The notes under the pieces are model-generated. The model saw nothing but the letters and a program-made list of their open reading frames with translations. It searched no databases and was not told the origin of the DNA. Below, one piece after another: positions 31,027-62,920 of a DNA stretch of 64,000 bases; position 1 is the stretch's first letter; each line of letters begins with the position of its first letter. A program made the position numbers and the translations under genes. This stretch comes from a virus: the IMG/VR virus record IMGVR_UViG_3300035142_000030, positions 1 through 64,000 of that record, one strand, 5' to 3'.

Positions 31027-31155
31027 ATACAACGTTAAGCTTATGATACGTTGCGTTTAATAACATAACTTTTTGATAAAAATAAAAATTATATAAAATG
31101 AATATACTTAACAAATTAGCAAAATGTAAGCAATGGATTATACGCATTGTTAGCA
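31027..31155. repeat. attC-like site; its loop contains the start of the 31098 gene
   Basis: ATACAAC...TATGATACGTTGC / GCAATGGATTATA...GTTAGCA; homologous to the site at 51269-51398. Confidence 0.7.
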
Positions 31156-31478
31156 GTAGTTTATCTGGGAGGGTTTTTTATGATAATGGTAAAAAATATA
31201 TTATTCCTAAACACGTTTGGTTTAGCACAACTTTTAAAAAATATGGGAATGTACATAAAGCAAAGTTTGTTATCAACAAATACTCAAAGTCAGAACCAAA
31301 ACGAAGAATATGTAAATACATAGATGTTACAACTGGAACATATTTTTGTTTTGTAACCGCAAAAAGCAAAATAGAAGCACAAAAATTATTTTATAAGCAA
31401 TTGTGCGAATCAGGTGTTATTTTAAATGAAGAAGAAGAATGGAATCAATTTTTTTTCGGGCATGAACAAAGCGAATAA
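31098..31478 (+). CDS. Hypothetical cassette-type protein
   Basis: N-terminus KQWIIRIVSSS is encoded by the attC arm. Confidence 0.6.
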   Translation: MNILNKLAKCKQWIIRIVSSSLSGRVFYDNGKKYIIPKHVWFSTTFKKYGNVHKAKFVINKYSKSEPKRRICKYIDVTTGTYFCFVTAKSKIEAQKLFYKQLCESGVILNEEEEWNQFFFGHEQSE

Positions 31479-31489
31479 AATTTGACATT

Positions 31490-31762
31490 ATGGATATAGT
31501 AGAACATGCCATTAATAGAATTGAGTTTAATGAACACAAAATAAATGAATCTTTAAAAGAATTAAAAGAACTTAAAGATAATTTAATTGTAAAATATAAA
31601 CATCCTGAAATTGATATTAAGAGATTACTTCAAGATGAAAAATATAGATACATTATAGCACTTAAATTATCGAAAAATAATGTAGAAACTGCTAAATTAT
31701 TAGGAACTACTGAAAGAACATTTTATAGAAAAATGAATGAATTTAATTTACATAACCAATAA
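31490..31762 (+). CDS. Fis-type HTH protein
   Basis: C-terminal ALKLSKNNVETAKLLGTTERTFYRKM matches HTH_8. Confidence 0.75.
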   Translation: MDIVEHAINRIEFNEHKINESLKELKELKDNLIVKYKHPEIDIKRLLQDEKYRYIIALKLSKNNVETAKLLGTTERTFYRKMNEFNLHNQ

Positions 31763-31774
31763 AAATTAGAAATT

Positions 31775-31984
31775 ATGAGACAAGAAGTAAAATTTAGAGC
31801 ACCAATTAAAGTAATTGAAAGCGACAACTATTATTTGGTAATAGAGGATGCCGTTGGAGTTACGCATTATTTTCACAAAGAACATGATAATAAGTATGGA
31901 AAATTTAAACAAGGCGAATATGATGGATGGAGTAAACAAATTCGTAGTTTAAATGATAATACGAAAAAATGTTGTGGATTTTAA
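31775..31984 (+). CDS. Hypothetical protein
   Basis: 69 aa, AAATTATG start. Confidence 0.55.
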   Translation: MRQEVKFRAPIKVIESDNYYLVIEDAVGVTHYFHKEHDNKYGKFKQGEYDGWSKQIRSLNDNTKKCCGF

Positions 31985-32078
31985 TGTCCCGTTTAGAGGT
32001 ATATCCCGAAATAAAAAAAAAACTCGTAGAGTTTTGGGGGTACGGGATGGGTTGTGGGAATACCGAGCAAGCAATGGT

Positions 32079-32151
32079 TTATAACACAGCGGGATTTATG
32101 GGACGGTTTGGGGCTTTTGCCCCAAAATGGACTATGAAATCACAGTTAGGC
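32079..32151. repeat. attC-like site B
   Basis: TTATAAC...GATTTATGG / CTATGAAATC (extrahelical G)...GTTAGGC with an internal TTTGGGGC-TTTT-GCCCCAAA hairpin. Confidence 0.75.
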
Positions 32152-32166
32152 ATAAAATTTTTTGAT

Positions 32167-32367
32167 ATGGAATTTATAGTAGAATTAGAAGAAGGTGTTT
32201 ATTTGGCTACTTGGTCTGGCGACCCTGGGCGAACACTAAAGATTGAAAACGCACAAGTATTTGTCCGCGATAAAGATGCTGATAATGCTCTTGTTAGAGC
32301 CAGATATTATAGACCATTTAAGTATGCCAAAGTGCGAAGGCAAAAGGAAGGGTTGCGAAGCAGCTAA
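32167..32367 (+). CDS. Cassette gene, hypothetical (MEFIVELEEGVYLATWSGDPG...)
   Basis: Start re-called downstream of site B; lies in a body with 13-bp complementary ends. Confidence 0.65.
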   Translation: MEFIVELEEGVYLATWSGDPGRTLKIENAQVFVRDKDADNALVRARYYRPFKYAKVRRQKEGLRSS

Positions 32368-32386
32368 GGATGGGGGGGATTTTTAT

Positions 32387-32479
32387 GCCTAACGGTTTGG
32401 CTATGTTTAGTAGCCTAACCACTAACTTTGAAATATTTACTAAATTTGCATAGGCTATTAAATATAGCTTTTGTTATAA
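32387..32479. repeat. attC-like site C
   Basis: GCCTAAC...GCTATGTTTAGTAGCCTA / TAGGCTATTAAATATAGC...GTTATAA; 18-bp stem with two G-T pairs on the + strand. Confidence 0.8.
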
Positions 32480-32483
32480 ACTT

Positions 32484-32638
32484 TTAAGGGGGCTTCTTCG
32501 GAAGTATCAGCAGAAGGGGAACTTCGATAGCACAGTTGGTATGAGGCAACGACTTCAAACATCGTATATCGTAGGTTCGATTCCTACCGAATGACTTAAA
32601 ACGAGGCGTTACTGCACGCCTACCCTCTGCCCCCTTAA
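32484..32638 (+). ncRNA. Structured RNA with an embedded degenerate tRNA domain
   Basis: Terminal 10-bp stem TTAAGGGGGC/GCCCCCTTAA, C(UUCG)G hairpin, D-loop AGTTGGTA, anticodon arm ACGA..TCGT, T arm GTAGG-TTCGATT-CCTAC, extra AGGCGT/ACGCCT hairpin. Confidence 0.6.
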
Positions 32639-32745
32639 TTGTTTTATAACTATTAAATAAACACACCTGCATTAAAACTATTATATTTAATATAAATTTT
32701 AATATAAAAATCAAGAATTACCATAAAATTAGGGGAAATTTTTAT

Positions 32746-32753
32746 TATATTTG
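32746..32753 (+). promoter_or_regulatory. -7 promoter element TATATTTG
   Basis: TAnnTTTG four nt before the 32758 ATG (near-leaderless transcript possible). Confidence 0.45.
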
Positions 32754-32757
32754 TATT

Positions 32758-33111
32758 ATGAAAACACTAATATTATTTCTATTATTATTTCCTATCTATT
32801 CTTATTCGCAACAGGTAGGAGAAAAACTAACCCAAAAAGAATCATTAGCTCTTGTAGAAAAAGATCATTGTAACAAGTACTATTATACCTCAGAAGATAG
32901 TATCATTACTATTAGGACAAGAAAGTCAGATGATCTTATATGGGATATAGACTATCAAGTAAAGAGGACAAGTAAACTTTCATGGGTAACACAATACACT
33001 CAAATAGGAAGAAACGTATTCTATGATGAAGGAGATTATTATTTTGTATTTATTATAGGAGAATATTATTTAATACAGATTAGGAATGCGGAGAAAGTGT
33101 CGTCCTTATAA
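32758..33111 (+). CDS. Secreted hypothetical protein
   Basis: Bacteroidota-type signal peptide ending SYS-Q. Confidence 0.55.
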   Translation: MKTLILFLLLFPIYSYSQQVGEKLTQKESLALVEKDHCNKYYYTSEDSIITIRTRKSDDLIWDIDYQVKRTSKLSWVTQYTQIGRNVFYDEGDYYFVFIIGEYYLIQIRNAEKVSSL

Positions 33112-33775
33112 TTATGTTAATGTACATGAAATTATTAAAAGTGATAAGGTTTATGTGCCTAAGTTGAAATGGAAATTTGAATATGAAAGCTATTTTTTAA
33201 GTGGTGATAGGCAGCAAATATTGGATGCTATGTTTCAGCCCAAAAGTAAGGTTGTAAGAACAAATACAAGTTTTATCAGGAAGTTGGTTATAGAGATAGG
33301 GATTCAGGAGTTAAAGATTCGTAAGATAGTAGAAGGTAAAACAGCTAAAGGGTATCCTAAGATTATAGTATCTTGGCATAAACATCCTGGAAAGTATATG
33401 ATAGATGGGGAGGAGTTTAATAATTCTAGCGCTAGCAATAAGGACAACATTTATGATACTATAGACTGTTTGCATTTAGTACAAGATAAAGATAGAGCTT
33501 CTTTTGCAAAATATTGGTTTAGACCATTTACTAATTCATTTTCAAGGGAAACATTATTAAGAATCCCTAAGGGAAGGAAGTTTAAATGTATAGTTGCTCA
33601 TGTAGAAGAAGCTTTTAAGGAAAGAGACAAGCAGATGTATTACAAACAAGGGAACAGAATAGGGCAGCCAATAGTATTATTAAAGCCAGAGATAGTTAAG
33701 GTTTATCCATTAGAAACTCCCAATAAGGATATAAAAATAGATTATTTTAAATTATATAAACCTATAAAATTATAA
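33086..33775 (+). CDS. Hypothetical protein
   Basis: 229 aa basic ORF in the operon. Confidence 0.55.
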   Translation: MRRKCRPYNYVNVHEIIKSDKVYVPKLKWKFEYESYFLSGDRQQILDAMFQPKSKVVRTNTSFIRKLVIEIGIQELKIRKIVEGKTAKGYPKIIVSWHKHPGKYMIDGEEFNNSSASNKDNIYDTIDCLHLVQDKDRASFAKYWFRPFTNSFSRETLLRIPKGRKFKCIVAHVEEAFKERDKQMYYKQGNRIGQPIVLLKPEIVKVYPLETPNKDIKIDYFKLYKPIKL

Positions 33776-33778
33776 AAC

Positions 33779-34120
33779 ATGGAACAAATAATAGAGTATG
33801 AAGCTTTAGAAAGGAAAACAATATCTCGTGTTGTATGGTTAGACATGGATAGAGTGTTTTTTATTTTTAACGATGATTCTTTTTGTATTATTAAAGGAAG
33901 CGGGTGGGAAGAACCATATGCTGAAATAGATACAAATGAATATAATTTAGAACCTTACGAATGGAACTATAATGATTTATATAAATTAGGATTCATATCG
34001 AAAGAAGAATATAAGAAAATAGCTAATAATGCTAAGGATATGCACAGAAAGAGAATAGAAGAAGCAGATTTAGAAAAAATAAACATACTAAAACAAAAAT
34101 ACCCACAATATTTTAAATAA
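33779..34120 (+). CDS. Hypothetical protein
   Basis: 113 aa. Confidence 0.55.
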   Translation: MEQIIEYEALERKTISRVVWLDMDRVFFIFNDDSFCIIKGSGWEEPYAEIDTNEYNLEPYEWNYNDLYKLGFISKEEYKKIANNAKDMHRKRIEEADLEKINILKQKYPQYFK

Positions 34121-34121
34121 C

Positions 34122-35405
34122 ATGGATACACAATTTTTTACAATAGATGAAATATCAGCCAAAAACTTTAAAGGGCTTAAAGATTTTAAAGCTGACCTAA
34201 ATAATGTTTCTGTAATATTATCAGGATCAGAAGGAGTAGGCAAGTCTAATATCTATCATTTGGTTGAAGGATTAAGAAAATTTAAAGGAGCTAAAATTAC
34301 TAAAGGGGAAAAAGAAGGTAGTGGAGAGATCAGCATAAGTAAAGGGGACACTAACTATCGATTCTGCTTTAGTTTTACAGAGGACAATAAACATAAACTA
34401 ACAACATATGTAGATGGAGAAGCTAAACCGATAACAAAAGCAAGGCAAGCTTATATTTTAGAACAACTATTAGCTCCAACATTTGATATTGATGCCTTAT
34501 TAAACTCTTCAGGACAGAAACAAGCAGAAATGGTAAAAGAGGCTTTACGGATAGATACTGTAAAAGAAGAGGCATACTACCAACAGAAGTTTGAAGAAAG
34601 AAGAGATTTAAAAAGGGATTTATCTAAAAATCCTAAACCAGAAGAAGTGCCGGAAGCTAAAGAGGTAGACATAAATGATCTTTTAAAGCAGAAAAAGGCG
34701 ATAGAAGAATTTAATGCTGAACAAGACGCTAAACAAAAGATTATAGATTTCTATTTATCTATGAGTAAGAAGTTAGATAAACAGATTACCGATCCTGGTT
34801 CAGATGCTTACCTTAAACATATAGCTACCTCTAAAAACATGCATAAAGATATTATTAAGTTTATCACAGAAAACATTTTCAAGTTAGATCAACCTAAAAA
34901 ACATAAAACGCTTGAAGATGTAAATAGAAGCCTTGAGGGTGCGCAAAAGACTAACGAGAACGCTTTAGCTTATAAAAAATATTTGAGCTCTATAAAGGCT
35001 TTTAATGAGCTTAAAATAAAAGTTGATAAAGCAGAAGATGAAGTAAAGGAGGCTAGAGAAAGATTGTTAAACAAGATGAAGCAAGTGGACATTCCTGTGG
35101 ACGGGCTTGAACTAGATATGCAGATGTCAGATAGTGGAAAGATAAGCACTACATTAACTTATAATGGGCTAGAGATGAACGATGCTAATATTAATACGAG
35201 TAAAAAATACGCCATTGCAGCTTACTTACAAATGAATTTATTTAAAGAAGGGAATCTAGGAGTATTCCATGTTAATTCTTCATTTATGAGTAATTCTACA
35301 TTGCAAGATATAGCAAGGGAGTGTAGAAGATTAAATTTACAATGTCTTTTTGAGATAACTAGTAGAAAAGCTAATGAACCACTTAAAGTTGAATCTATTT
35401 TATAA
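34122..35405 (+). CDS. SMC/SbcC/RecN-like P-loop ATPase
   Basis: ISAKNFKGLKD, Walker A GSEGVGKS, central coiled coil. Confidence 0.75.
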   Translation: MDTQFFTIDEISAKNFKGLKDFKADLNNVSVILSGSEGVGKSNIYHLVEGLRKFKGAKITKGEKEGSGEISISKGDTNYRFCFSFTEDNKHKLTTYVDGEAKPITKARQAYILEQLLAPTFDIDALLNSSGQKQAEMVKEALRIDTVKEEAYYQQKFEERRDLKRDLSKNPKPEEVPEAKEVDINDLLKQKKAIEEFNAEQDAKQKIIDFYLSMSKKLDKQITDPGSDAYLKHIATSKNMHKDIIKFITENIFKLDQPKKHKTLEDVNRSLEGAQKTNENALAYKKYLSSIKAFNELKIKVDKAEDEVKEARERLLNKMKQVDIPVDGLELDMQMSDSGKISTTLTYNGLEMNDANINTSKKYAIAAYLQMNLFKEGNLGVFHVNSSFMSNSTLQDIARECRRLNLQCLFEITSRKANEPLKVESIL

Positions 35406-35417
35406 AACAATTGCTAA

Positions 35418-35618
35418 ATGAGAATAAATAAGTGTAAACTATTTGGTCATAAATGGATTCCTGTATTTATTAAAGGAGAATATAATGGAAAAACCATTAA
35501 ATTTATTGCTTGCTTTTGTGATAGATGCAGGAAAGGATATAATGAGGCACATGATATTAATAAGGCAGCAATAAATAGAGAATATGGAACTTATAGTGAG
35601 AAATATTTTAAGGATTAA
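35418..35618 (+). CDS. DUF1660-like small protein
   Basis: CKLFGHKW...CDRC motif. Confidence 0.55.
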   Translation: MRINKCKLFGHKWIPVFIKGEYNGKTIKFIACFCDRCRKGYNEAHDINKAAINREYGTYSEKYFKD

Positions 35619-35621
35619 GTA

Positions 35622-35891
35622 ATGACCCAACAAAAGAAAACATTTCTAATTAAATATACGGCTTTTGACAAGAAAGGGAAGGTTCTTAAAGCTAATGGTG
35701 AAATGAAGGTCAAGAATAAGGTTAGTAAATTTGAAGCTCAATGTAGCTTTGAAGAACATCTTAAAAAGAAGTATAATGATTTTGGAAGACTTGTGATTCA
35801 TGGTTGCACTGAAGATATTGTGAGTAATATGTTTGGCGATATCGATTCGAATGCAATGGATATTTTCAATAAAATGTTTGGAGGATTATGA
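35622..35891 (+). CDS. Hypothetical protein
   Basis: 89 aa. Confidence 0.55.
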   Translation: MTQQKKTFLIKYTAFDKKGKVLKANGEMKVKNKVSKFEAQCSFEEHLKKKYNDFGRLVIHGCTEDIVSNMFGDIDSNAMDIFNKMFGGL

Positions 35892-36035
35892 AATGATACT
35901 ACTATGGATATTATTTATATTAATCATTGTTTACTATATCTTTAAACCAGATATAGATATAACAAGAGAGAAGGATGTAATTCTCTATTATAATTGGTAT
36001 AATACCAGAAAGTACATAATAGTGTTTAGATTGTA

Positions 36036-36446: not shown

Positions 36447-36448
36447 TT

Positions 36449-44786: not shown

Positions 44787-45149
44787 TTAGAATGGTAAAG
44801 GATCATTATCATTATCTTCCACAGGTGGTATTTCTTCATTAGCAGAAGTTTTATTTGCTTCTACATGTGTTAGACGCCACGCTTGAAGACTATTAAAATA
44901 ACCAACCCTACCATCTTTTTCCCACTTTCTGCCTCTTACATTAAATTCTACTTTAATGCCTTCTCCTACGGAAAAACTATCTAATGCAGATACGTTATTT
45001 TGGGTTATCTCAAACTTAATATAGTCAACAAATTCTTTTTGTCCCACTAGCTCTGTTTTAGTAATTACAAACTCTCTTTTCTTAAATTTGTCAGATATTA
45101 CTATAACATCTGTTTTCATTTCTAATTTTCCTTCAATTGAATAATTCAT
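44787..45149 (-). CDS. DUF3127 family ssDNA-binding protein (start MNYSIEGK)
   Basis: FKKREFVI...IKFE...FNVRGRKW...YFNSLQAW; acidic DPLPF tail. Confidence 0.85.
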   Translation of the reverse strand: MNYSIEGKLEMKTDVIVISDKFKKREFVITKTELVGQKEFVDYIKFEITQNNVSALDSFSVGEGIKVEFNVRGRKWEKDGRVGYFNSLQAWRLTHVEANKTSANEEIPPVEDNDNDPLPF

Positions 45150-45540
45150 TTTTTTCTTTTTTATATTTATAATTAAACCATGCTTCAAATTCTTTTTCTG
45201 AAAACTCTCCACTTAATTCTTTTACGTCTCTATAACATTCTTTTAGCTCTTCTTTTAAAAGTTTTTCAATATCTTCTTCTATTCGATAATACCTTAAAAG
45301 GTCTACTCTATAACCAGTGTTGGATTTCTCCTTGTATTTGTAGAGTATGTTATCAATTTTATCCTCTATCATTAAAATTTTAGATTCTACATCAACAACA
45401 TCAGATATATTTAAATCTTCTGCTTGTGTAGTCATAGGATAAAATTCCCATTTAACTTCAGGGTTAAATTCATTCATTTTGCTTAAGAAGTTATCTAAAG
45501 CAACTTTATTTTCTGGATTTAAGTTTTTTATATTTGCCAT
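45133..45540 (-). CDS. Hypothetical protein
   Basis: 135 aa. Confidence 0.55.
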   Translation of the reverse strand: MANIKNLNPENKVALDNFLSKMNEFNPEVKWEFYPMTTQAEDLNISDVVDVESKILMIEDKIDNILYKYKEKSNTGYRVDLLRYYRIEEDIEKLLKEELKECYRDVKELSGEFSEKEFEAWFNYKYKKEKNELFN

Positions 45541-45603: not shown

Positions 45604-45702
45604 TTATAACTACGTATAAATTCAAAAACCATGTGATAAGCTCATAAACTTTAAGATTACTCCGTAATCCAGTTTCTGAACTTATACGTTTGAACGTTAG
45701 GC
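45604..45702. repeat. attC-like site D (left edge of array 2)
   Basis: TTATAAC-T-ACGTATAAATTCAAAAAC / GTTTCTGAACTTATACGT-TTGAAC-GTTAGGC; A/C mismatches become G-T pairs on the minus strand. Confidence 0.8.
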
Positions 45703-46010
45703 TCAATCGCTTGCACTCCTTCCCTCATTTAAAATTGTATCAATTTGTTATTTTAAATGCTAAAATATCAACAGTTAATCGGATTTAATACGGTTAATTG
45801 CTTATATTTAAACAATTTTAAATTCCATCCTTACAACCCTCAAAATGCCAAATATTATTTTGCCTAACAATTTGGAAAATAAGCCTTCACACAAGTCCTT
45901 TAACGTCTCTTCTATCTGTTGCATTTTACCTAATATTACAATGCCTAACTAGTAAATAAAGTCCATAAAAATCAAAACTCTGTGTTTATAAAAAATAAAA
46001 CCACCGCACA

Positions 46011-46307
46011 CTACCAACTGTTATAGAATCTGATTTTATGCACACCTTTAGGTAAATCTTTAATAAATATCTCATATCCAGAAGAAGCATCGTCATCATA
46101 TTCTTTATAATGTTTTCCTGCTTCTAAGTTTATTTCTAATTTTTCATCCAATAAGTATTCTTCTGGATATTCACTGCCAAAATATTCAGCAGTAGCCTTT
46201 GGTAAATCTACATCAGCTTCTAAACAGGCTAATAATACTTTTTTGTGTTTTTGGTAAGTTTCATCCGTATCAGGTATGAATGCTTGTACATGTGTTGACA
46301 TTCCCAT
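46011..46307 (-). CDS. Hypothetical phage protein
   Basis: 98 aa, ends IRFYNSW. Confidence 0.6.
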   Translation of the reverse strand: MGMSTHVQAFIPDTDETYQKHKKVLLACLEADVDLPKATAEYFGSEYPEEYLLDEKLEINLEAGKHYKEYDDDASSGYEIFIKDLPKGVHKIRFYNSW

Positions 46308-47770: not shown

Positions 47771-47830
47771 AATATCAATTAGTTAAAATTTATGTTCCAC
47801 CTATCGATTAGTTAGCTGTAATAAAATTTA

Positions 47831-48100
47831 CTATCGTTCTACCCAAAAAGGATATTCCCCTGTATAAACTACTTTATTGCCAGCATTTGGCACGTATTCC
47901 CCTCGCTCGGTTTTCATCCAGTTCATTAGTGGTTCAAATGATGTTTTAGTTTCGTAACCGAAGCATCCATATTTAAACTTTATCTCCTTTTTGAAACCTT
48001 CATTTTCAGTTAAATCTCCAAATGGTGTAACATAAGGGAATACTACCATATCACCCTCGCACACTTCAATTCCGTTTTTATCAAATATATTACTTTTCAT
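47831..48100 (-). CDS. YopX-family cassette protein (start re-called to MKSNIFDKNG)
   Basis: DKNGIEVCEGD motif; the upstream part of the track ORF is attC sequence. Confidence 0.7.
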   Translation of the reverse strand: MKSNIFDKNGIEVCEGDMVVFPYVTPFGDLTENEGFKKEIKFKYGCFGYETKTSFEPLMNWMKTERGEYVPNAGNKVVYTGEYPFWVER

Positions 48101-48118
48101 GCCGTAAATTTTACATAC

Positions 48119-48218
48119 CGCTAACAAGCGGTCATAGTTAATAAAGCCAATTAAGTTTAGTTCGTTGTAGGTTGCGGTAGTGGGTGGCTTTACTAACCAT
48201 ACCGCATCTACGTTACAG
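48119..48218. repeat. attC-like site F
   Basis: CGCTAAC-AA-GCGGTCATAGTTAATAAAGCCA / TGGCTTTACTAACCATACCGC-ATCTAC-GTTACAG, with an extra C in the left arm. Confidence 0.82.
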
Positions 48219-48266
48219 ACAATTGCCCGCACGGCATTCCGCACGGGCTATCGCTCACAACCCACT

Positions 48267-48623
48267 CTAAATTTTGTTTAGAATTTGTTCCAACGCCCAA
48301 TACTCTGGATTTGCAAGAGCAGTAACTACATTATTAATATCACAAATACTAATAATCAGCCAAATACATAAAATGATTGCAAGTATAACAATTGCAATCC
48401 AATGTCCAACTTCAGTATCATTATCATAGCATTTTTGATAATTTTTAGCAAACCATTTTATGTATCGCACATATGGTATAATTAAGAGAAAAGAAATAAT
48501 GATTAAGGTAATTCCCACAAATGCATCAATAGGTGCTTGCTTAATCATAACTCCCCACAAGTATTCGGTCGTTGTACCAAGCTTACTTGCTAAGCTTTCT
48601 AATAATGTTGTTAATTCATTCAT
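48267..48623 (-). CDS. Two-TM cassette protein
   Basis: LASKLGTTTEYLW...NPEYWAL; body ends GTTACAGACAATTG / CAATTGTCTGTAAC. Confidence 0.7.
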   Translation of the reverse strand: MNELTTLLESLASKLGTTTEYLWGVMIKQAPIDAFVGITLIIISFLLIIPYVRYIKWFAKNYQKCYDNDTEVGHWIAIVILAIILCIWLIISICDINNVVTALANPEYWALEQILNKI

Positions 48624-48666
48624 TTTAATATAATTTAGTTAAACAAAATTTTCTAATGTCAATTGT

Positions 48667-48814
48667 CTGTAACAGTCGCCTAAATACAGCATTCGTCGCA
48701 GCTTCGTATCAAATTGGTTCATATCGTATTGAAACCCTAAGGCAACTATCTGTAACTACTAAATACAAGCCAGCGAGACAAGCTCGCCATCGTGTATTTA
48801 GGCGACTGTTAGAT
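48667..48814. repeat. attC-like site G with perfect 19-bp arms
   Basis: TAACAGTCGCCTAAATACA / TGTATTTAGGCGACTGTTA. Confidence 0.8.
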
Positions 48815-49001
48815 TCCATACTCCCACGGCATTCCCACAAACCCCGCTACGCCCCACCGCACAAAAACCATCGTATGAAATCTAATGGTACGGCAAGTAG
48901 TACCACTCGCTCAATACCATTTACGTATCTGAATCTTATTACTTCCTCCAACGTACAGAATCTAACTGTCAAGTCAGAGGAAAGTAATTTTAGAACTCAT
49001 T

Positions 49002-49226
49002 CTAAACAATACGTTTACAGCTTAATTCCCAATGTACTTGTTCGGCAACTTTTAATCTACGAACTGAACTTTTTCCAGTTTCAGGTAATTTGCCTTCATT
49101 TAACCATAATAATATCATTTGTATAAAGTTGCCTGCTGGCAATTCTACTTTTTGACCTTTACCATCTATATAATAAACTGTATCAGTCAATTCGCTGTAA
49201 ACTAATTCTTTTTTTTGCTCAATCAT
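49002..49226 (-). CDS. Hypothetical protein enclosed by an 18-bp inverted repeat
   Basis: 74 aa; arms at 48884-48901 and 49276-49293. Confidence 0.6.
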   Translation of the reverse strand: MIEQKKELVYSELTDTVYYIDGKGQKVELPAGNFIQMILLWLNEGKLPETGKSSVRRLKVAEQVHWELSCKRIV

Positions 49227-49396
49227 TTCTATATAATTTTATCTGTTAATAAACAATGTTCTAAAATTCCCATCCACTACTTGCCGTACCATTGTAACTC
49301 AATTGACAGCTCTCCATCCGCACAAGGCTTCCCATCCGCCCCGCAAAATACCAAAGCAATTGAGTTACAACGCTCGGAGTTCATTCGATGTAAAAA

Positions 49397-49651
49397 TTAT
49401 GAAACACCGAGTTTATGAGCTTCTTCATCAAATGCAATTTTTATATTTGTAATTTCAGTTTGAATTTCTAATAAAAGTTCATGAAATTCTTGTTGCTTAT
49501 CTTCAATTTGTTTGTCAGCAAATTGCATTTTTGAAATTATGTTCTCCTTATAAGCATAAGCAGAGTTCAAATCATTTTTTAATTTTGTGTGCTTAGCTTT
49601 AAGAACATCAAGTCTATTTAAGTAATTACCATACTGTTCTTGAAAATTCAT
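49397..49651 (-). CDS. Coiled-coil cassette protein
   Basis: 84 aa. Confidence 0.6.
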   Translation of the reverse strand: MNFQEQYGNYLNRLDVLKAKHTKLKNDLNSAYAYKENIISKMQFADKQIEDKQQEFHELLLEIQTEITNIKIAFDEEAHKLGVS

Positions 49652-49700
49652 AATTTTTACCTTTCTATATTTAAGTTTATAATGTTCGATACGTCACAGC

Positions 49701-49810
49701 GTACAACTACGTGTAATGCAGAATTGCTACAATCGAATGATGCCGATTTACGGCTTTACTTTGCCTTGCGGCAAATCGCCGCAACTCAGCATACACTCCG
49801 AGCGTTATGC
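49701..49810. repeat. attC-like site
   Basis: GTACAAC-TAC-GTGTAATGCAGAATTGC / GCAACTCAGCATACAC-TCCGAGC-GTTATGC. Confidence 0.75.
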
Positions 49811-49842
49811 GTAAAAATACCCGCATCCTAGTTCGCTAACGC

Positions 49843-49938
49843 TCACCCATCCGCATCCTCCCACTTATCAATATACAATTTTAGCTTATAAATAAGTATT
49901 CCTATTACAATTCCGATTCCTATTAATATTAAATTCAT
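49843..49938 (-). CDS. 31-aa single-TM micropeptide cassette gene
   Basis: MNLILIGIGIVIGILIYKLKLYIDKWEDADG; fills a body with 16-bp complementary ends. Confidence 0.55.
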   Translation of the reverse strand: MNLILIGIGIVIGILIYKLKLYIDKWEDADG

Positions 49939-50095
49939 ATCCAAATATTTTTACGCATAACACCAGAGAAAATATACCGTCCCGCAGGAGACGTTCTCCA
50001 GTATCTGCAAGTTTATATTCCTAATATTTCTACTCATAACTAAAAAATCATAGCACATTAAAATCAAAACTCTGTGTTTAATAAAATAAAGCCAA

Positions 50096-50446
50096 TTAAT
50101 ATATATTCTTTCTACCCCTGTCAGCGTGCAATGGTACTAAATGATCACACGAACCGCAAAAATGTTTAGCTTTAGTCTCCCAGTAAATTCCTTCAGAATG
50201 TGTATCAAAAAGCGAATTACAATTGCTACACATCTCAATATGGTCTGGTAGTAAAGGAAAATGTTCTTGTAAATAATAAATTATTGCAAACGCTTTTTTA
50301 GCTGTCATCTTTGGCTGATGCCCACGCTTAAAAGAAAGTTGTTCAGGTAATTCACCTTGTAAAAAATTGTAAAATTCTTCTATCCATTCAAGGTCTGTAT
50401 CAATCCTCTGATCATTATTTTTAAGCAATTTTATTTCATTGTACAT
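50096..50446 (-). CDS. Zn-binding hypothetical protein
   Basis: CSNC...CGSC; enclosed by an 18-bp inverted repeat. Confidence 0.6.
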   Translation of the reverse strand: MYNEIKLLKNNDQRIDTDLEWIEEFYNFLQGELPEQLSFKRGHQPKMTAKKAFAIIYYLQEHFPLLPDHIEMCSNCNSLFDTHSEGIYWETKAKHFCGSCDHLVPLHADRGRKNIY

Positions 50447-50586
50447 AAGGCTTTATTTTTAATTAGTACTAAATTTATAATCATATTTTACCTGTAATTT
50501 CATCAAGTTTCAATCAATGTTTTAATTTTACCGTCCCATATTTTCTCTGGTGTTAGAAAACATGCCGTTTCGAACGGACGCAAAAA

Positions 50587-50868
50587 TCATTTTGCTTTCT
50601 TATATTTAGAGCCTTTACTATTACAAAAATCACATATTGCATTGTTAGGTTTGTTAGATATACATGAACTGCAAAATTTCCATTTTTGCTCATGTTTTCT
50701 AACGGTTTCACGTTCGTTTGATATTAAAATTTGATTGATAAAGTCATTCAATTGGACTATAGCGTATTCAACAGACAACATATCTAATGTGTCTTCATCT
50801 CCAATTGTATCAAGTCTATCCATTAATATCTTACGTATTCCATCAGTATAATCTTTTTTATGTTTCAT
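50587..50868 (-). CDS. Cassette protein with Cys-rich C-terminus
   Basis: CSSC...CDFC. Confidence 0.6.
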   Translation of the reverse strand: MKHKKDYTDGIRKILMDRLDTIGDEDTLDMLSVEYAIVQLNDFINQILISNERETVRKHEQKWKFCSSCISNKPNNAICDFCNSKGSKYKKAK

Positions 50869-50926
50869 AATATCAAATTTTAATTATTAATACTAATTTA
50901 GTTTATCAATTCTCAACGTCACGATT

Positions 50927-51036
50927 TTCTAACCAACGTTTATGCTTAATTAAAGCTATCAAACGATGCTCCGTTAAAGCTTTTCTTGCGTTTCACGCAA
51001 CCGCTTTAACAAAGCATACACGTGAAACCGTTAGAG
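50927..51036. repeat. attC-like site
   Basis: TTCTAAC-CA-ACGTTTATGCTTAATTAAAGC / GCTTTAACAAAGCATACACGT-GAAACC-GTTAGAG. Confidence 0.8.
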
Positions 51037-51041
51037 TGCAT

Positions 51042-51329
51042 TTAATCCAAGTGAATAAGCATTTCTCCCCACGCACTTCTACCTTTCACTTTCGGTAGTG
51101 ATGTGTAGTGTAGTGTCATTCCTGTAAATTCACACTCTTTGTTATTTAAACTTTTTTTAACCATCCAGTCTTTTGCTTCTTTCCTTATAATATCATCTTC
51201 ATTGTTTCGATGCCAGCCCACGCTAATTATCAAATTACCAATTCTAATTTTACTAAGTGAAAAACGCACTCTAACAATAGATAAAATCCATTGCTTAAAA
51301 TGTGCTAATTCGTTACGTAAGTATTTCAT
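51042..51329 (-). CDS. Cassette protein starting inside an attC loop (MKYLRNELAHFKQWILSIVRVR)
   Basis: N-terminus homologous to that of the 31098 protein. Confidence 0.6.
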   Translation of the reverse strand: MKYLRNELAHFKQWILSIVRVRFSLSKIRIGNLIISVGWHRNNEDDIIRKEAKDWMVKKSLNNKECEFTGMTLHYTSLPKVKGRSAWGEMLIHLD

Positions 51330-51398
51330 ATCAATGTTTTTATAAGTTTGAAAATTCAGTTCATTAAATCGCAACGTATCTTATCAGAGCCGTTGCAC
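51269..51398. repeat. attC-like site homologous to 31027-31155
   Basis: CTCTAAC-AATA-GATAAAATCCATTGC / GCAACGTATCTTATC-AGAGCC-GTTGCAC. Confidence 0.8.
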
Positions 51399-51485
51399 AC
51401 AATGCCCCATCTAGGGGACGTGCGACTCGCTATCGCTCCTGTCGCACTCATTGTGTGCAACAGTTTGGCGTTAGCTTGTAAATAA

Positions 51486-51662
51486 TTATTCGCTCAGTAC
51501 TTCTAAACTATAAGATGATACATAATCAATCTTTTTACCAACTATTACAACTGCATACGGTATATCATCAGCTCCCCGCACGTATCCATCAATGTATCCA
51601 ACATCTCCAACCTTAAACATCATATGTTGGTATTCTTTAATAATTTTAACTTTTGTCTTCAT
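51486..51662 (-). CDS. 58-aa hypothetical cassette protein (MKTKVKIIKEY...)
   Basis: Translated by hand; below the track cutoff. Confidence 0.6.
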   Translation of the reverse strand: MKTKVKIIKEYQHMMFKVGDVGYIDGYVRGADDIPYAVVIVGKKIDYVSSYSLEVLSE

Positions 51663-51697
51663 AATTATTTATTTAGTTATTTGTTAATTTCTGCTTA

Positions 51698-51868
51698 CTA
51701 GATGGTGCACAATGTGCAACTAGCGTTTATGCGTAATTGTAATAGGCAATTTCCAATCTCCCAGTAACTTGCGCCTAAACGTTCCAATATCATTTCAGCT
51801 TTCTCAAAGCTCCAACTTTTATAACATTGATAAAAGTTCCCTTTATAGGTATACATTATATGAATCAT
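51698..51868 (-). CDS. Hypothetical protein (start MIHIMYTYKG)
   Basis: AAATTATG context; C-terminus reads through an attC-like arm. Confidence 0.45.
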   Translation of the reverse strand: MIHIMYTYKGNFYQCYKSWSFEKAEMILERLGASYWEIGNCLLQLRINASCTLCTI

Positions 51869-51985
51869 AATTTTATATTTAAAGTTTGTACTAAATTTTA
51901 ACAATACCCTAAAAATCCTTCCCATATCTTTCGGAGTGTTATGGCTCAATTTCGCTACGCTCTACGATGACTTCATTTAATTGAG

Positions 51986-52171
51986 CCATAACGAGACAAC
52001 GTATGAAGTACAGGCTCAGTGTACTATATTAATTCTATTTTAATTTATCCGCTCAACTAGAGCATAACTACATATAAGCGTAATACTATGAGCCTTACTT
52101 CAAAGCTCTCAGAATATTTCACCGATAAAAATCGGCTCATATTCCTACGCTTATACGTTGTCTCGTTAGTA
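51986..52171. repeat. attC-like site with perfect 16-bp outer arms (right edge of array 2)
   Basis: TAACGAGACAACGTAT / ATACGTTGTCTCGTTA, plus inner TGAAGTA..AGGCTCA / TGAGCCTTACTTCA pairing. Confidence 0.75.
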
Positions 52172-58052: not shown

Positions 58053-58090
58053 CAGAATAAAACTAAATATTAATTTAAAACTATAGAGAT

Positions 58091-58378
58091 ATGAAACAAG
58101 AAGAGATTATACAAAACAATAAACTTATTGCTGAGTTTATGACAGGACAAAGCAAAGAATCGACAGTATTTATGGATTTGAACCGTTCTGCAAATGATTT
58201 AGAATATCATTCATCTTGGGATTGGTTAATGCCTGTAATTAATAAAATATATGAAATTCCTTTAAATCATGGGTGGTTTAGAATTAAATATATTATAGAC
58301 TCTTTTTATCCTATGGATATTGAAAAGACTTATAAAGAAGTTGTGGAGTATATTGAATGGTATAACGAAAACAAATAA
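58091..58378 (+). CDS. Hypothetical phage protein
   Basis: NKLIAEFM...YHSSWDWLMPV..KI motif. Confidence 0.65.
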   Translation: MKQEEIIQNNKLIAEFMTGQSKESTVFMDLNRSANDLEYHSSWDWLMPVINKIYEIPLNHGWFRIKYIIDSFYPMDIEKTYKEVVEYIEWYNENK

Positions 58379-58414
58379 TTAATTTATTTAAAAAAATTTT
58401 AAACATATAAGGAT

Positions 58415-58579
58415 ATGAAGACAAAAAAAGAACTACAAAAAGAAAATAAAGAATTAAAAGAATCTTTAAAAGATATAATTCGACAAGTAGAATATCCACA
58501 AAGATCATTAAGTGACAGGAATGGAATTATGATACAAAAACCAATATTAAAGATAAAAATATTAGATTTAGTTTCATAG
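58415..58579 (+). CDS. 54-aa hypothetical protein
   Basis: Translated by hand (MKTKKELQKENKEL...). Confidence 0.45.
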   Translation: MKTKKELQKENKELKESLKDIIRQVEYPQRSLSDRNGIMIQKPILKIKILDLVS

Positions 58580-58605
58580 TTTAATAGTTAATTTTAGTTG
58601 ATTTA

Positions 58606-58636
58606 AAGGCCTGTATTTAATCGTACAGGCTTTTTT
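58606..58636 (+). terminator. Rho-independent terminator
   Basis: AAGGCCTGTA...TACAGGCTTTTTT. Confidence 0.7.
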
Positions 58637-58891
58637 AATATAATATACCTCATAGGATATAAAATAGCCTTAAAAGCCTTAAATTATATCTTTTCGGGTA
58701 TAATTACACGCATAAACTAGGAATTAACAATAATTATAACTATATTTGTAACTCTATTAGTAATAGTACCCAGAACCAAATAACAATTAATATGAATTAA
58801 CGAGATGTAGACCGGCCTGGCGATAAATCCAGAAGAACACACAAGAAAAGGAATTATAAAAACAAGTGTTAAACTTATTTTTATTGTACAA

Positions 58892-58925
58892 ATAGCCTGG
58901 TTTAAATTAGATCAGGTTATTTTTT
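58892..58925 (+). terminator. Rho-independent terminator-like hairpin
   Basis: ATAGCCTGGTTTAA-A-TTAGATCAGGTTAT plus T run. Confidence 0.55.
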
Positions 58926-59771
58926 ATGCTTAAAGATTAAGTTTATTAAGTCTAAATAAACGTTAAAAGCCTAGATATTAAGATTTAAACCCTCTGAGAA
59001 TTGAATATTTGAAACGCTCATGCACTATGATACTGTACAGATTACTCTCAAGGACTTAAATATTAAGAACTTAAACAAATAACACGCATAAACCATAAAT
59101 CAAACATAAAATCCTTTCAAGGATATTACATATATAAGAAAGAGACAATAACAAAAAAAAACATCAATATAATAAATAATAAATACCAGCAAACTATTTA
59201 ACAATTATTATATATTTCTGTTTGCTGGATAGAATAGAGTAAGTATTTGGACAGGAAATAGATATAAATAGTATTTTAACTCCGTTAGAATTGGATATTC
59301 ATATCTATTGTGTAATATGATAGATGATATTATAAAGAATCTGTATTAAATAGATAGAATATAGTGTTATTTCAGCTAAAATATACCTTTTTGACTCACA
59401 TTTTTAGTTAAAATATCATATTTAATAATCAGGCACTTATATAATTTTGGTCTCAGTTCCACACAGCGCGAAGACCAACTTTTGAAGATTTAATATACCT
59501 CAGTTATTATCTTAGATATATAGAGAGGATTTTAACAGGATATTAGTATTATTAAAGAATGGGCAAGCTCATCAACTAATAATATATAGCATACTACTAT
59601 GTTATACCAAGTGTTTCAAAATGGAACACTTTTAGGTAAAATAAACCCAACCTATTTTTTAGGTTGGGAACAAAAAAGGCTGTAAGGCTTATAAATACTA
59701 AAGAATTGTGAAAAACGATAAATTGATTATTTGTCCAATAATTAGTATTTTGTTAATATGATTATGAGACA

Positions 59772-60368
59772 TTATAGCACATCAGGCTTGAACTCAAAGA
59801 TATATGCTTTATGCCTAGTTTCATCTTTTAAATATCGATTAATTGTTTTGCGATCTACACCGAAATGTTTAGCCGCATCGACAACAGAATCAAACTGTAA
59901 TTGTTCCCTGGTTTGTATGTGTGTGGTTAATATAGGTTTTTTCTTTGCATTTGACATTTTTATGCGTGTTTCAAGGTTGTGCGGAGGTTTTATTTTGCCT
60001 TTCCAATAACTATTCCTTTGTCCTGTCTGAAAGGATTTTAATATGTTTTCGCTATGAGTTACCCACTCTAAGTTAGATATATGATTATTTAACTTATCGT
60101 GGTCAATATGGTTAACCTCTTTCTTATATTTATTGTCGCTATATCCCTTGAAAGTGATTAATACGAGCCTATGAGCGAAGAATATCTTTGTGCGTGGTTT
60201 ATCTCTGTTCTCTTCTGTCTTCTCTTGCGTAAGATGGTATAATATATAGCCACAACTATTTAGTTGAGGTTTTAAGAATCTTTGCTTTCTGATAGAATAC
60301 ACATCACCGTTTTCATATATATAATATAAGTTTTCAAATCCTGGTAACATTATTGTTTTTCTTTTCAT
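59772..60368 (-). CDS. Free-standing HNH homing endonuclease (NUMOD4-HNH-NUMOD3/NUMOD1 type)
   Basis: PGFENLYYI.ENG, AHRLV, EVNHIDHDKLNNHISNLEWVTHSEN, ETRIKMS, FDSVVDAAKHFG. Confidence 0.88.
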   Translation of the reverse strand: MKRKTIMLPGFENLYYIYENGDVYSIRKQRFLKPQLNSCGYILYHLTQEKTEENRDKPRTKIFFAHRLVLITFKGYSDNKYKKEVNHIDHDKLNNHISNLEWVTHSENILKSFQTGQRNSYWKGKIKPPHNLETRIKMSNAKKKPILTTHIQTREQLQFDSVVDAAKHFGVDRKTINRYLKDETRHKAYIFEFKPDVL

Positions 60369-60744
60369 AATGAATTATTTAATTAATATTGATGTGTGAC
60401 AAATGTACAAAATATAATTAATATATACAAATTGCTTTTTCTTTGGCTCAAACATTTAGGAAGGAAATAATACTAGGAGTATGTTTATTTACTTAATACA
60501 GACGATCTGATGCACTTTTATAGTATGAGCGGATACTTTTTCATTTTCAATAAGTTAATGTCTTTAAAGGGGTTAATTTTAAAGGGGGTAGGTTCGCAAA
60601 TTTCGTTTTAGGTTAGCAAGTGACACCCCTCATTTTATATCTTTAAGCCCATATAGAGAATAGTACAAACATTTTAAATCCTTAAAATATACACTATTAG
60701 CTATAATAATCAGTAATAAATTATGATATTAACTATTTTATCCT

Positions 60745-60752
60745 TATATTTG
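60745..60752 (+). promoter_or_regulatory. -7 promoter element upstream of cassette array 3
   Basis: TATATTTG about 80 nt before the first attC-like arm. Confidence 0.5.
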
Positions 60753-60929
60753 TATAAAATAAAATATAATATGTGAATGTACTAAGTTTATTTGATGAGA
60801 TATCATCAAAGCTACTTCATCTTAATGGAGTCTAATGGTTGAGTATATGAGTAGTGTCCCAAACGTACAGTGGGACGCACATAAATTTTAAAAAATGTAC
60901 AAACGAGAATATAAACTATAAAAACACGA

Positions 60930-61346
60930 GTGATGAAAAATTTAAAACAGGCATTAATTGAAAATATCGCTGACATTTTAGATAGTGAAGATGTACGGTG
61001 TGAAGAGGTGTTAAACGGAATTTCCGACCCGATAAAAAGAGAAAAAAGCGAGTTGCATATAAGGATGGCAGAAGCTGCACTTGCTGAATACAAAAGAACG
61101 TGCGAGGACAGGGCAATGGAATTAGATATTGAAATATTTGACAAAAACAGAAAGGTATTACATATAGGTAGTATTATAAGCCGTTATTTATTTAAACTTG
61201 CAGAAAAGCACGATAAAGATGTTGAAGATTTACTACTAGGTATAGAACTAAGCCAACCAATTAGAGATGATGGAAAGAACATCATAGAATTAGTGGACTT
61301 AGACCTTAATAGAATTGACAAGGTTTTATGTTCTAATGGCTTATAA
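60930..61346 (+). CDS. Cassette-type protein spanning an attC-like arm (KVLHIGSIISRY)
   Basis: Stop TAA lies inside the TTATAAC core of the next site. Confidence 0.55.
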   Translation: MMKNLKQALIENIADILDSEDVRCEEVLNGISDPIKREKSELHIRMAEAALAEYKRTCEDRAMELDIEIFDKNRKVLHIGSIISRYLFKLAEKHDKDVEDLLLGIELSQPIRDDGKNIIELVDLDLNRIDKVLCSNGL

Positions 61347-61623
61347 CGTTGAATGTATGGGTAGGGCGTGAAATACCTGCAGCCCTACACGCGATAGATA
61401 AACATTAAATAACATAAATAGCGAACGATTATGAAACACGTAATAGAATTACTTACAGAACAATTAGAATTGATTAGTGACGAAATAAGATATGCAGAAG
61501 GTGAAGAACTGAAACAGTTAGACTGCAGAAACACAGAAATAGGGACTGCTCTTAAAATACTGCAGTTAGTGAGCGGTGTAAATACGGAGAACGAACAAGC
61601 CTTACCTATACATATTGTTAGGG
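61341..61623. repeat. Large attC-like site whose loop holds the start and about 55 codons of the 61431 gene
   Basis: TTATAAC-GTTGA-ATGTATGGGTAGGGCGTG / CAAGCCTTACCTATACAT-ATT-GTTAGGG (17 of 18 paired, two G-T on +). Confidence 0.8.
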
Positions 61624-61826
61624 TTTGTGCTTGGGAGGATGCTGCAGACGAGGATAAAGTACCATTTTTAGAAAAAGCTGCAGAACTTGCAGGTGATTCA
61701 ATGTTTTGTACGCGCGTTTGGAGTGCGTGGGGAGTTGGAACTATGAGCGAGAACGACTTTGTTGATGCTGCAGATGATGATGATTACGTATACGAAATAG
61801 CAAAAGCGATTTGGGAGGGGTATTAA
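61431..61826 (+). CDS. Two-part cassette protein (junction ALPIHIVRVC)
   Basis: 131 aa; C-terminal half lies in the body GTTAGGGTT...AACCCTAAC. Confidence 0.65.
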   Translation: MKHVIELLTEQLELISDEIRYAEGEELKQLDCRNTEIGTALKILQLVSGVNTENEQALPIHIVRVCAWEDAADEDKVPFLEKAAELAGDSMFCTRVWSAWGVGTMSENDFVDAADDDDYVYEIAKAIWEGY

Positions 61827-61924
61827 CCCTAACGCCTTAAAGCGTAAACTCCGTTACATGGAGAACGTAGTTCGGGAATGTAACGAGTTTAAAATGCTGT
61901 AATGGAGTTTACGCATAGTTACAA
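61827..61924. repeat. attC-like site
   Basis: CCCTAAC-GCCTTAAA-GCGTAAACTCCGTTACA / TGTAATGGAGTTTACGC-ATA-GTTACAA. Confidence 0.82.
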
Positions 61925-61976
61925 ACCGTGCCAATGGCACAAAGATTATTAGAATGTTGAACTTAAAATAAATTTT

Positions 61977-62126
61977 ATGAAACGTTTATGTAAAATGAAA
62001 CCATATTATGTAATACCAAGAGTATTTTATATATATGCTGGCTATACTGGATTAGATAATGGATTAGCAATAGGTTGGCTTGGCAGAATGTTTATTATAA
62101 TTATTCCTGTTAATGAAAGGGAATAA
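61977..62126 (+). CDS. 49-aa hydrophobic cassette protein
   Basis: Translated by hand (MKRLCKMKPYYVIPRVFYIY...). Confidence 0.45.
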   Translation: MKRLCKMKPYYVIPRVFYIYAGYTGLDNGLAIGWLGRMFIIIIPVNERE

Positions 62127-62465
62127 AATTTATGCATTTTAGCTTTAAGGCGTTACAAAACCATAGGCAAACAGTGGAAACGGTGAGCGAAGCGAATAAG
62201 TTTCGTTTGCCGTGCCTCGATGGCATGGTTTTGTAACGTACGTGTATACGCCTGTTGGTATGATTATTAATAGTATAAACTTAAATTAATAAATAATAAA
62301 ATTACGTAAATTCGCAAAAATAATAAAGACAACGAAAACAGATTTGCAGAAATGATAATACCCAGAAAAGATATTGATATAATAATTAAGAGACAAAGAT
62401 CAATATTATAACAAAGTGTTAATCAAAAATTGAATGAATAATAAACGTATTAAATATATAATATT

Positions 62466-62633
62466 ATGATAGAGCGATTTGAAGCTTTAATAGGACAATA
62501 TGAAGCTGAACTAAAGAAATTACTTAATGAATTTCGAAAAGCTGAACCATCTCCACATAAATCTGAATTAGAGATTATGATTAGGGAAAAAAAAAGAGTA
62601 ATTTCTGATTTAAAGTGGGTTTTAGTTTATTAG
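62466..62633 (+). CDS. 55-aa hypothetical protein
   Basis: Translated by hand (MIERFEALIGQYEAEL...). Confidence 0.5.
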   Translation: MIERFEALIGQYEAELKKLLNEFRKAEPSPHKSELEIMIREKKRVISDLKWVLVY

Positions 62634-62681
62634 AATAACAAACTTTAAAAAATTATTAAAAATTTATAAAAAATATGAGCG

Positions 62682-62855
62682 ATGGTAACAAGCGACAATT
62701 ATTACGAAAAGAAAATTAAAAACAGTATTGGGAAAAGATTCACACAAAAAGAAGCAATTGAATTTGAAAGAGAAATGATTAATTCCCCAACTGGCACTAA
62801 CAATTATACATGGTTTGATAGTAAAACAAAACAGCCAATTGCGTTTAATTATTGA
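62682..62855 (+). CDS. 57-aa hypothetical protein
   Basis: Translated by hand (MVTSDNYYEKK...); stops 2 nt before an attC-like core. Confidence 0.5.
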   Translation: MVTSDNYYEKKIKNSIGKRFTQKEAIEFEREMINSPTGTNNYTWFDSKTKQPIAFNY

Positions 62856-62856
62856 G

Positions 62857-62920
62857 CGGTAACGGTGGCAATAAGATTAAGCGTAGCGACCCGTAGGGTT
62901 AATTTTATTGCGTGTTATAC
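62857..62920. repeat. attC-like site upstream of the methyltransferase
   Basis: CGGTAAC-GGTG-GCAATAAGATTAA / TTAATTTTATTGC-GT-GTTATAC. Confidence 0.8.

Follow-up and report, generated by a model that had tools for sequence, protein, structure and literature searches.

Probable recombinase-less arrays of integron-like cassettes, with the site 5′ of its gene, in a crAss-like phage

We analysed the first 64 kb (the window) of the 76,721-bp viral record IMGVR_UViG_3300035142_000030, in which three clusters of hairpins and inverted repeats, at 31.0–32.5 kb (+), 45.6–52.2 kb (−) and 61.8–62.9 kb (+), probably represent recombinase-less arrays of integron-like gene cassettes whose sites lie 5′ of their genes, an arrangement inverted with respect to classical integrons. 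Each cassette would consist of two parts: a folding site, AAC...GTT, with a long stem and a one-sided spacer beside the AAC, and a body, GTT...AAC, bounded by an inverted repeat private to it. This site family lies directly upstream of a 267-aa Xer-like tyrosine recombinase in many other Bacteroidota-type phages. A sequence-only reading of the same DNA had listed nine sites and proposed that each belongs to the 5′ end of its gene and that the coding strand is the one that folds. The first of these two proposals was borne out by our data, and the second is likely.

The sites were recognized with R1, a covariance model built from 60 sites of recombinase-linked phage arrays, all of which adjoin the small Xer-like recombinase in other phages. 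The window was searched with filters off, since the default filters missed every site in it. Six sites matched at E < 0.01 with 25–53 bits, and all R1 matches in the window fell on the local coding strand. Five of the nine listed sites were recovered at their exact starts (31027, 32387, 45604, 48119 and 51269), and the sixth match, 50927–51036 (−), was absent from that list. Searches of two negative controls, positions 1–30000 of the window (the structural half) and the genome from 64 to 76.7 kb, returned nothing above 17.1 bits. AAC and GTT triplets are present at every site. The best match, 32387–32479, has the geometry GCCTAAC, a spacer of 5 nt versus 3 nt, a 19-bp stem with three G-T pairs, and then GTTATAA. 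At 45604–45702 the spacer is 6 versus 1, with four G-T pairs on the − strand, and at 62857–62920 it is 4 versus 2, with a 13-bp stem and a single G-T pair; the latter site follows directly after the stop of 62682–62855 and precedes a C5 DNA methylase gene (62952–63932, PF00145). The longer spacer lay beside AAC, at the gene-upstream end, in all seven scorable window sites and in 149 of 152 sites of the reference arrays, exactly as the earlier reading had stated. No Rfam family matched the sites at its gathering score, and at E ≤ 5 there were four weak sub-threshold matches, none of them at a claimed site.

The second line of evidence is provided by the inverted repeats. An exact search of 48212–52168 revealed twelve perfect inverted-repeat pairs of 12–19 nt, each with its own sequence, in which neighbouring arms share a 3–4 nt TAAC/GTTA core. 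As a whole, 47.8–52.2 kb forms an unusual, unbroken 4.4-kb chain of perfect 12–19 bp private inverted repeats with AAC/GTT cores in common, and additional perfect pairs occur at 61830–62238 and 32145–32393. The repeat of the latter body is exact over 13 nt and extends to 15 nt with one mismatch, a signature that is also seen in real integron cassettes. The tiles of the chain alternate strictly, GTT...AAC and then AAC...GTT; genes occur in both kinds, and some junctions fall inside open reading frames (ORFs), such as the junction-like copy ACGTGAAACC-GTTA-GAAAACATG internal to ORF 50587–50868. Private arms here measure 13–16 nt, as compared to a family median of 10. The positive control was the Vibrio phage MK672802 with its true integron (IntIA, 494 bits on TIGR02249), in which every cassette is flanked by a private perfect GTT-x...x′-AAC repeat of 9–13 nt. 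The match between this signature and the private GTT..AAC repeats of the window supports their identity as cassettes.

We also considered, and refuted, the possibility that the sites are hairpins that arose by chance on TAAC anchors in a genome rich in AT and skewed in GC. The heterogeneous shapes of the freely folded sites and a coding-strand folding bias that extends genome-wide would fit such an origin, but exact inverted repeats of at least 14 nt within 1.5 kb number 15, as compared to 2.1 ± 1.3 in block shuffles, and those of at least 16 nt number six, as compared to 0.13. R1 E-values down to 4.5e-8, the clean negative controls and the conservation described below also speak against chance.

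Two comparisons place breakpoints at the cores. Within the genome, a module of ~125 nt, comprising the 5′ untranslated region (UTR) and the first 19 codons of a gene, occurs twice, at 31042–31153 (+) and 51271–51398 (−); the likeness stops at the GTTAG core, beyond which the two proteins have unrelated bodies. Outside it, the metagenome contig L074 keeps 48660–48811 at 86% identity with both arms intact, and its likeness ends exactly at the GTTA core. The neighbouring gene has been replaced there between conserved arms, and the contig carries further private GTT..AAC tiles of its own. Because both the L074 likeness and the likeness of the internal paralogues break at cores, exchange probably takes place there. 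Contigs L073 and L075, which have 27 nt in common with the junction at 48664–48690, were treated as chance matches.

A link to recombinases emerged from the 118-aa gene at 48267–48623, which has many homologues. A private GTT..AAC repeat flanks the homologue at 3 of 71 phage loci versus 1 of 355 control windows, and the remaining 68 loci showed no repeat chains. At the three positive loci (L002, L028 and L055) we found arrays of 3–7 units with 45–93-nt hairpins between them, each array followed immediately 3′ by a tyrosine recombinase encoded on the same strand as the cassette genes. The recombinase of L055 is a true IntI (TIGR02249, 412.7 bits with a cut-off of 265), and that of L028 is a 267-aa Xer-like protein that stays below every cut-off (148.8 bits versus 265 on TIGR02249). 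Viral contigs contain 80 relatives of the L028 enzyme. At about 40 of these 80 loci there is an array of 3–12 cassettes, terminating ~52 nt ahead of the recombinase ATG at a conserved junction, YTAAC joined to TACTATATGTA. The order in phage arrays is (site-gene)n, a conserved attI-like spacer of ~52 nt and the recombinase, with a gene body rather than a site as the last unit before the spacer and the recombinase ATG.

Several observations were made alongside this survey. L055:138–5789 (IMGVR_UViG_3300049489_000585, 54.9 kb, GC 0.65) holds intI and seven cassettes with classical-looking attC hairpins, and its ORFs, judged by GC3, all lie on the strand with bottom-strand geometry and point to intI. 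On an unrelated phage contig, a 30-bp perfect inverted repeat surrounds a homologue of the 118-aa gene (L058:3526–4465), with a third copy 50 nt further on. Relatives of the small recombinase with 37–40% identity occur in many copies per genome in L192–L198 and other Acidobacteriaceae/Terriglobales loci, eight of which come from one Terriglobales metagenome-assembled genome (MAG). No cassette arrays were detected beside these relatives, and they therefore probably belong to a different element.

Gene orientation in the phage arrays is inverted. Across the ~40 arrays, 179 cassette ORFs lie on the strand of the recombinase and the site model, 4 lie opposite and 30 are unclear, and in 49 of 139 reference cassettes an ATG falls inside the site loop. 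The same is seen in the window at 31098 and 51329: the site at 31027–31155 spans the 5′ UTR and the beginning of gene 31098–31478, from its ATG at 31098 through about the first 19 codons. Two bacterial contigs with the same site family, L186 from Croceivirga radicis and the MAG contig L172, show the opposite arrangement, since R1 matches there lie opposite to the gene strand and, in the manner of classical integrons, a stop codon precedes each site. Taken together, the 179:4 count in phages and the opposite-strand genes in bacteria support the inverted design, with the coding-strand R1 matches and the loop ATGs in agreement. In all bacterial cases (9 of 9) the spacer asymmetry goes with the site, the genes being on the other strand. 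Because the marks of polarity stay with the site although the genes flip, they are features of the DNA and not of the mRNA.

Which strand folds and recombines is a separate question. The earlier argument from G-T pairs stands as a count, with 11 on the coding strand and none on the other in the eight scored window sites; the corresponding counts were 271:76 in the reference arrays and 11:7 in the bacterial arrays. However, arbitrary 120-nt windows also fold better on the coding strand in 413 of 533 cases (77%; mean difference −0.95 kcal/mol), with G-T shares of 3.5% versus 2.5% of pairs on the coding and the other strand, so that the argument from G-T pairs and folding energy is partly compositional. 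Folding both strands freely, as the earlier reading had suggested, gave no common shape for the nine sites, and the free energies were uninformative, as they also fail on real attC sites: in MK672802, free folding favours the top strand in 8 of 10, and energies do not separate the strands.

We infer that the coding strand is the one that folds and recombines, by analogy of layout and from four weak bottom-strand matches in Vibrio. Read on the model strand, the phage platform has the order (site-body)n, junction, recombinase, which is the classical integron order on the bottom strand. The AACG...TGTT flanks, present in the window sites as in the family, match the bottom strand of the real Vibrio array, and R1 gave four weak matches to this array (16–21 bits), all of them on the bottom strand. 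In the classical recombined bottom strand, extrahelical bases sit on the arm opposite AAC (PMC5027507); L055, with its true IntI, carries a bulged T and G on the GTT arm of the coding strand, which corresponds to classical bottom-strand geometry on that strand.

In an alternative that we consider unlikely, gene orientation is inverted as described, but the non-coding strand folds and recombines in the classical manner. The longer spacer would then lie opposite AAC, where the classical extrahelical bases sit (PMC5027507), and the coding-strand G-T excess, partly compositional and weak in the bacterial arrays, loses some of its force. We retain this alternative because the extra unpaired bases on the model strand belong to the AAC arm, unlike those of classical bottom strands, which weighs against recombination of the coding strand. 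The platform order, the Vibrio bottom-strand flanks and matches, and the bulged bases of L055 all favour the coding strand. None of the window sites has bulged extrahelical bases, their unpaired extras being the one-sided spacer beside AAC on the model strand, and the extrahelical G that had been claimed at 32079 and 48119 could not be confirmed.

The earlier reading had also suggested a role for the hairpin in the mRNA, and the hairpins might act mainly in RNA, as 5′ UTRs, terminators or processing signals, with exchange as a by-product of conserved regulatory flanks. G-U pairs on the coding strand, start codons within site loops and terminator-like hairpins in trailers are consistent with such a role, and so is a loop motif, AGCG(N)WAGCG, found five times in the genome and on the coding strand only. 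Nevertheless, the bacterial arrays carry the same polarity marks on the non-coding strand, the sites occur in tight association with both a tyrosine recombinase and a fixed junction, arm pairing is perfect and includes hardly any wobble pairs, and the breakpoints fall exactly at cores, which together make a mainly RNA-level function improbable. The five copies of the motif AGCG(N)[AT]AGCG in the 76.7-kb genome (62186 and 62880 on +; 51961, 51437 and 49843 on −) each lie in a short hairpin tile or a site loop, and relaxed copies occur at 48852 and 48254 (−).

The window sites are very probably not classical attC/IntI sites. Clusters of attC sites without an integrase (CALINs) have been described in virulent phages, including a Bacteroidota phage, and IntI1 is able to use them (Qi et al. 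2023, PMC9892861), so the clusters might be ordinary attC sites captured from a host integron and run by a true IntI. The AAC/GTT triplets, the private repeats at cassette ends and the true IntI adjoining the array of L055 would all be expected of captured attC sites. This origin is nevertheless very improbable: the enzyme linked to the model falls under the IntI cut-off (148.8 versus 265 bits on TIGR02249), bulged extrahelical bases are absent, real Vibrio attC sites reach only 16–21 bits with R1, and strict RYYYAAC..GTTRRRY pairs number zero between 31 and 63 kb as compared to 3.5 ± 2.4 expected, the last being a weak test because the scan is insensitive (3 of ~15 real Vibrio attC sites recovered). 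Transposon-like or miniature inverted-repeat elements, shufflons or invertons, IS200/IS605 hairpins and hairpin telomere fusion were rejected as well, because the private arms share only a 3–4 nt core and the sites are linked to a tyrosine recombinase.

The record carries 127-bp direct terminal repeats and has a completeness rating of 100%. It was assigned to the crAss-like phages because a terminase (phrog_6681), a portal protein (phrog_6547) and the crAss muzzle domain PF25729 were matched. The GC content is ~30%, with a GC skew of ~+0.25 on the coding strand throughout, and genes occupy the + strand up to 41 kb and beyond 58 kb, and the − strand between 41 and 57.7 kb. Only one sequencing run, from a wetland metagenome, contained DNA of this phage, and it is probably the source sample; no RNA run was listed as containing it. 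Megablast and blastn against a phage collection gave no match, searches with the single proteins encoded at 61431–61826 and 31969–32367 and with the terminase found no relatives, and an exact junction search across viral contigs found none.

Because the complete 76.7-kb genome has neither a tyrosine nor a serine recombinase, the three clusters are orphan arrays. This absence also weighs against interpreting them as cassette arrays, as do several other results. The complete genome gave no match to TIGR02249, PF00589, PF00239 or PF01797 and contains no recombinase remnant and no attI-like junction motif. Contigs of the source run reproduce the region with no alternative joints at the cassette cores of the 47.8–52.2 kb chain; the two joints called in other parts of the window had low depth or were spurious. 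Any cassette activity in this genome is accordingly putative. Among the sites listed by the sequence-only reading, 32079 and 61341 have no R1 match at E ≤ 10, 62857 is borderline, and 61827 is at noise level, both of these scoring near noise by a model whose E-values are themselves rough. Whole genes within perfect 12–18 nt AAC...GTT arms, as seen here, are rare in the reference arrays (10 cases in 470 kb), and L074 (1 kb) is the sole close relative compared.

On balance, we favour orphan cassette arrays of the inverted type. In the phage arrays the gene lies on the site-model strand, with the site before it and often supplying its start codon. The folded coding strand would undergo exchange at the AAC core that lies 5′ of the site, with a co-infecting phage or the host supplying the recombinase in trans. 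A bolder version, which we offer tentatively and hold to be less likely than its opposite, is that Bacteroidota phages run an integron-like system of their own in which the folded and recombined strand is the coding strand. A site carrying the promoter, the start codon and the first ~15–20 codons would allow recombination at cores to exchange entire genes as well as N-terminal leaders and portions of proteins. This phage would then be a recombinase-less client using an enzyme in trans, and its 4.4-kb chain, with genes inside site loops, a more extreme form than the reference arrays. The coordinates of all features are collected in Table 1.

Table 1. Sites, bodies and repeat tiles in the three clusters (bits and rough E-values refer to R1).
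Position	Strand	Feature	Support
31027-31155	+	Cassette site AAC...GTT	47.9 bits, E 4.6e-7
32079-32151	+	Claimed site, uncertain; AAC...GTT with internal GGGGC/GCCCC hairpin, within ORF 31969-32367	No R1 match
32145-32393	+	Cassette body with private inverted repeat GTTAGGCATAAAA / TTTTATGCCTAAC around 66-codon frame 32169-32367	Exact search
32387-32479	+	Top-scoring cassette site	53.4 bits, E 4.5e-8
45604-45702	−	Cassette site in 470-nt gap between genes 46011-46307 and 45133-45540	25.7 bits, E 0.0063
47811-48125	−	Cassette body GTT...AAC, 10-nt arms with one mismatch, 86-aa gene 47831-48091 (phrog_98)	Repeat search
48119-48218	−	Cassette site	25.0 bits, E 0.0086
48212-48673	−	Cassette body, 14-nt perfect private arms, 118-aa membrane protein gene 48267-48623, trailer hairpin	Repeat search
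48670-48811	−	Gene-less AAC...GTT hairpin, 19-bp perfect arms	Exact repeat search
48808-50555	−	Six tiles sharing cores, perfect 12-18 nt arms: 48808-48886; 48884-49293 (74-aa gene); 49291-49371; 49369-49806 (84-aa gene); 49804-49961 (31-codon frame); 49958-50555 (116-aa gene)	Exact repeat search
50552-50933	−	Cassette body, 93-aa gene 50587-50868	Repeat search
50927-51036	−	Cassette site	26.4 bits, E 0.0047
51030-51275	−	Cassette body, 14-nt arms with one T-G pair on − strand, codons 19-95 of gene 51042-51329	
51269-51398	−	Cassette site with ATG 51329 and first 19 codons; paralogue of 31027-31155	48.8 bits, E 3.1e-7
51392-52168	−	Tiles: hairpins 51392-51461 and 51938-51992 (13-14 nt arms, loop motif AGCG(N)TAGCG); 51989-52168 (16-nt arms)	
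61827-61924	+	Site-like hairpin, 17-bp stem, spacer 8 versus 3	14.3 bits, E 0.84 (noise level)
61830-62238	+	Interlocked 14-nt perfect repeats, 61830-43/62142-55 and 62151-64/62225-38	Exact search
62857-62920	+	Short cassette site, borderline	18.6 bits, E 0.13

Other features of the genome were recorded in passing. Directly after the cassette site 32387–32479 lies a strongly folding element of 165 nt (32479–32643, +; −55.6 kcal/mol, z −4.1), enclosed by a 10-bp helix between AAC and GTT. Its tRNA-like core has a D arm, an anticodon-like arm and a perfect T arm (GTAGG-TTCGATT-CCTAC) and is without an acceptor stem; it accounts for one of the four weak Rfam matches (tRNA, 25.2 bits versus a gathering score of 29) and received no ARAGORN call. 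A 76-nt direct repeat with 80% identity (50020–50094 and 45929–46003), just 3′ of two − strand genes, looks like a shared 3′ UTR module. Elsewhere, a free-standing homing endonuclease gene (59772–60368, −; HNH_3 with NUMOD1/NUMOD4) adjoins a 1.2-kb stretch (58.6–59.7 kb) without an ORF of at least 50 aa, a T5orf172/MUG113 protein is encoded at genome positions 73431–73904, and five tRNA genes (Leu-TAA, Leu-TAG, Ser-TGA, Gln-TTG and Ile-GAT) cluster near the right end of the genome at 74183–75014 (L001:14183–15014).

The usual picture of an integron has promoterless genes on the top strand of attC, served by one platform promoter. A large recombinase-linked phage family reverses this picture: every gene is preceded by a site of its own, within which its reading frame can begin. 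If recombination proceeds as we propose, lytic crAss-like phages would share a swappable pool of accessory genes with each other and with Flavobacteriia-type hosts; such a pool would probably consist of host-takeover or anti-defence genes and would be invisible to standard integron tools. Strand choice is directly testable, given that this site family is found with genes in either orientation.

A search of the available literature library found no description of arrays linked to Xer-like enzymes or of systematic gene inversion. Classical integrons, represented by the Vibrio fragment in MK672802, resemble the arrays in their conserved AAC/GTT triplets, in sites defined by structure and not by sequence, and in mutually complementary cassette ends, the private GTT..AAC arms measuring 13–16 nt here versus 9–13 nt in Vibrio. 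In classical and reference phage arrays alike, a fixed junction connects the array to the 5′ end of the adjoining tyrosine recombinase gene. Unlike in classical integrons, the genes here have the opposite strand relation to site polarity, with the site upstream and sometimes containing the start codon; a one-sided spacer replaces the bulged extrahelical bases, and the linked 267-aa Xer-like enzyme scores below the IntI cut-off, with this phage lacking any enzyme.

Integrons with an “inverted integrase”, of the Treponema denticola type, have a recombinase co-oriented with the cassette genes. Together with Croceivirga radicis L186 they share with the phage arrays the same or a similar site family and this co-orientation; however, their genes are classical relative to the site, which lies downstream with the genes on the top strand, and here this is reversed. 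The PeSLs of T4-type phages were reportedly presented by Arbiol et al. in 2010 as mobile regulatory cassettes whose repeated homologous sequences are used by homologous recombination. They are alike in that small accessory phage genes lie between stem-loops and are shuffled as modules, whereas each unit here has private arms and only a 3–4 nt core is common. Finally, the CALINs (PMC9892861) are likewise recombinase-less clusters of sites in lytic phages, with a DNA methylase gene beside a site, but they were called with classical attC models and are recombined by IntI1, whereas the nearest relatives of the window sites adjoin Xer-like enzymes and their gene orientation is systematically inverted.

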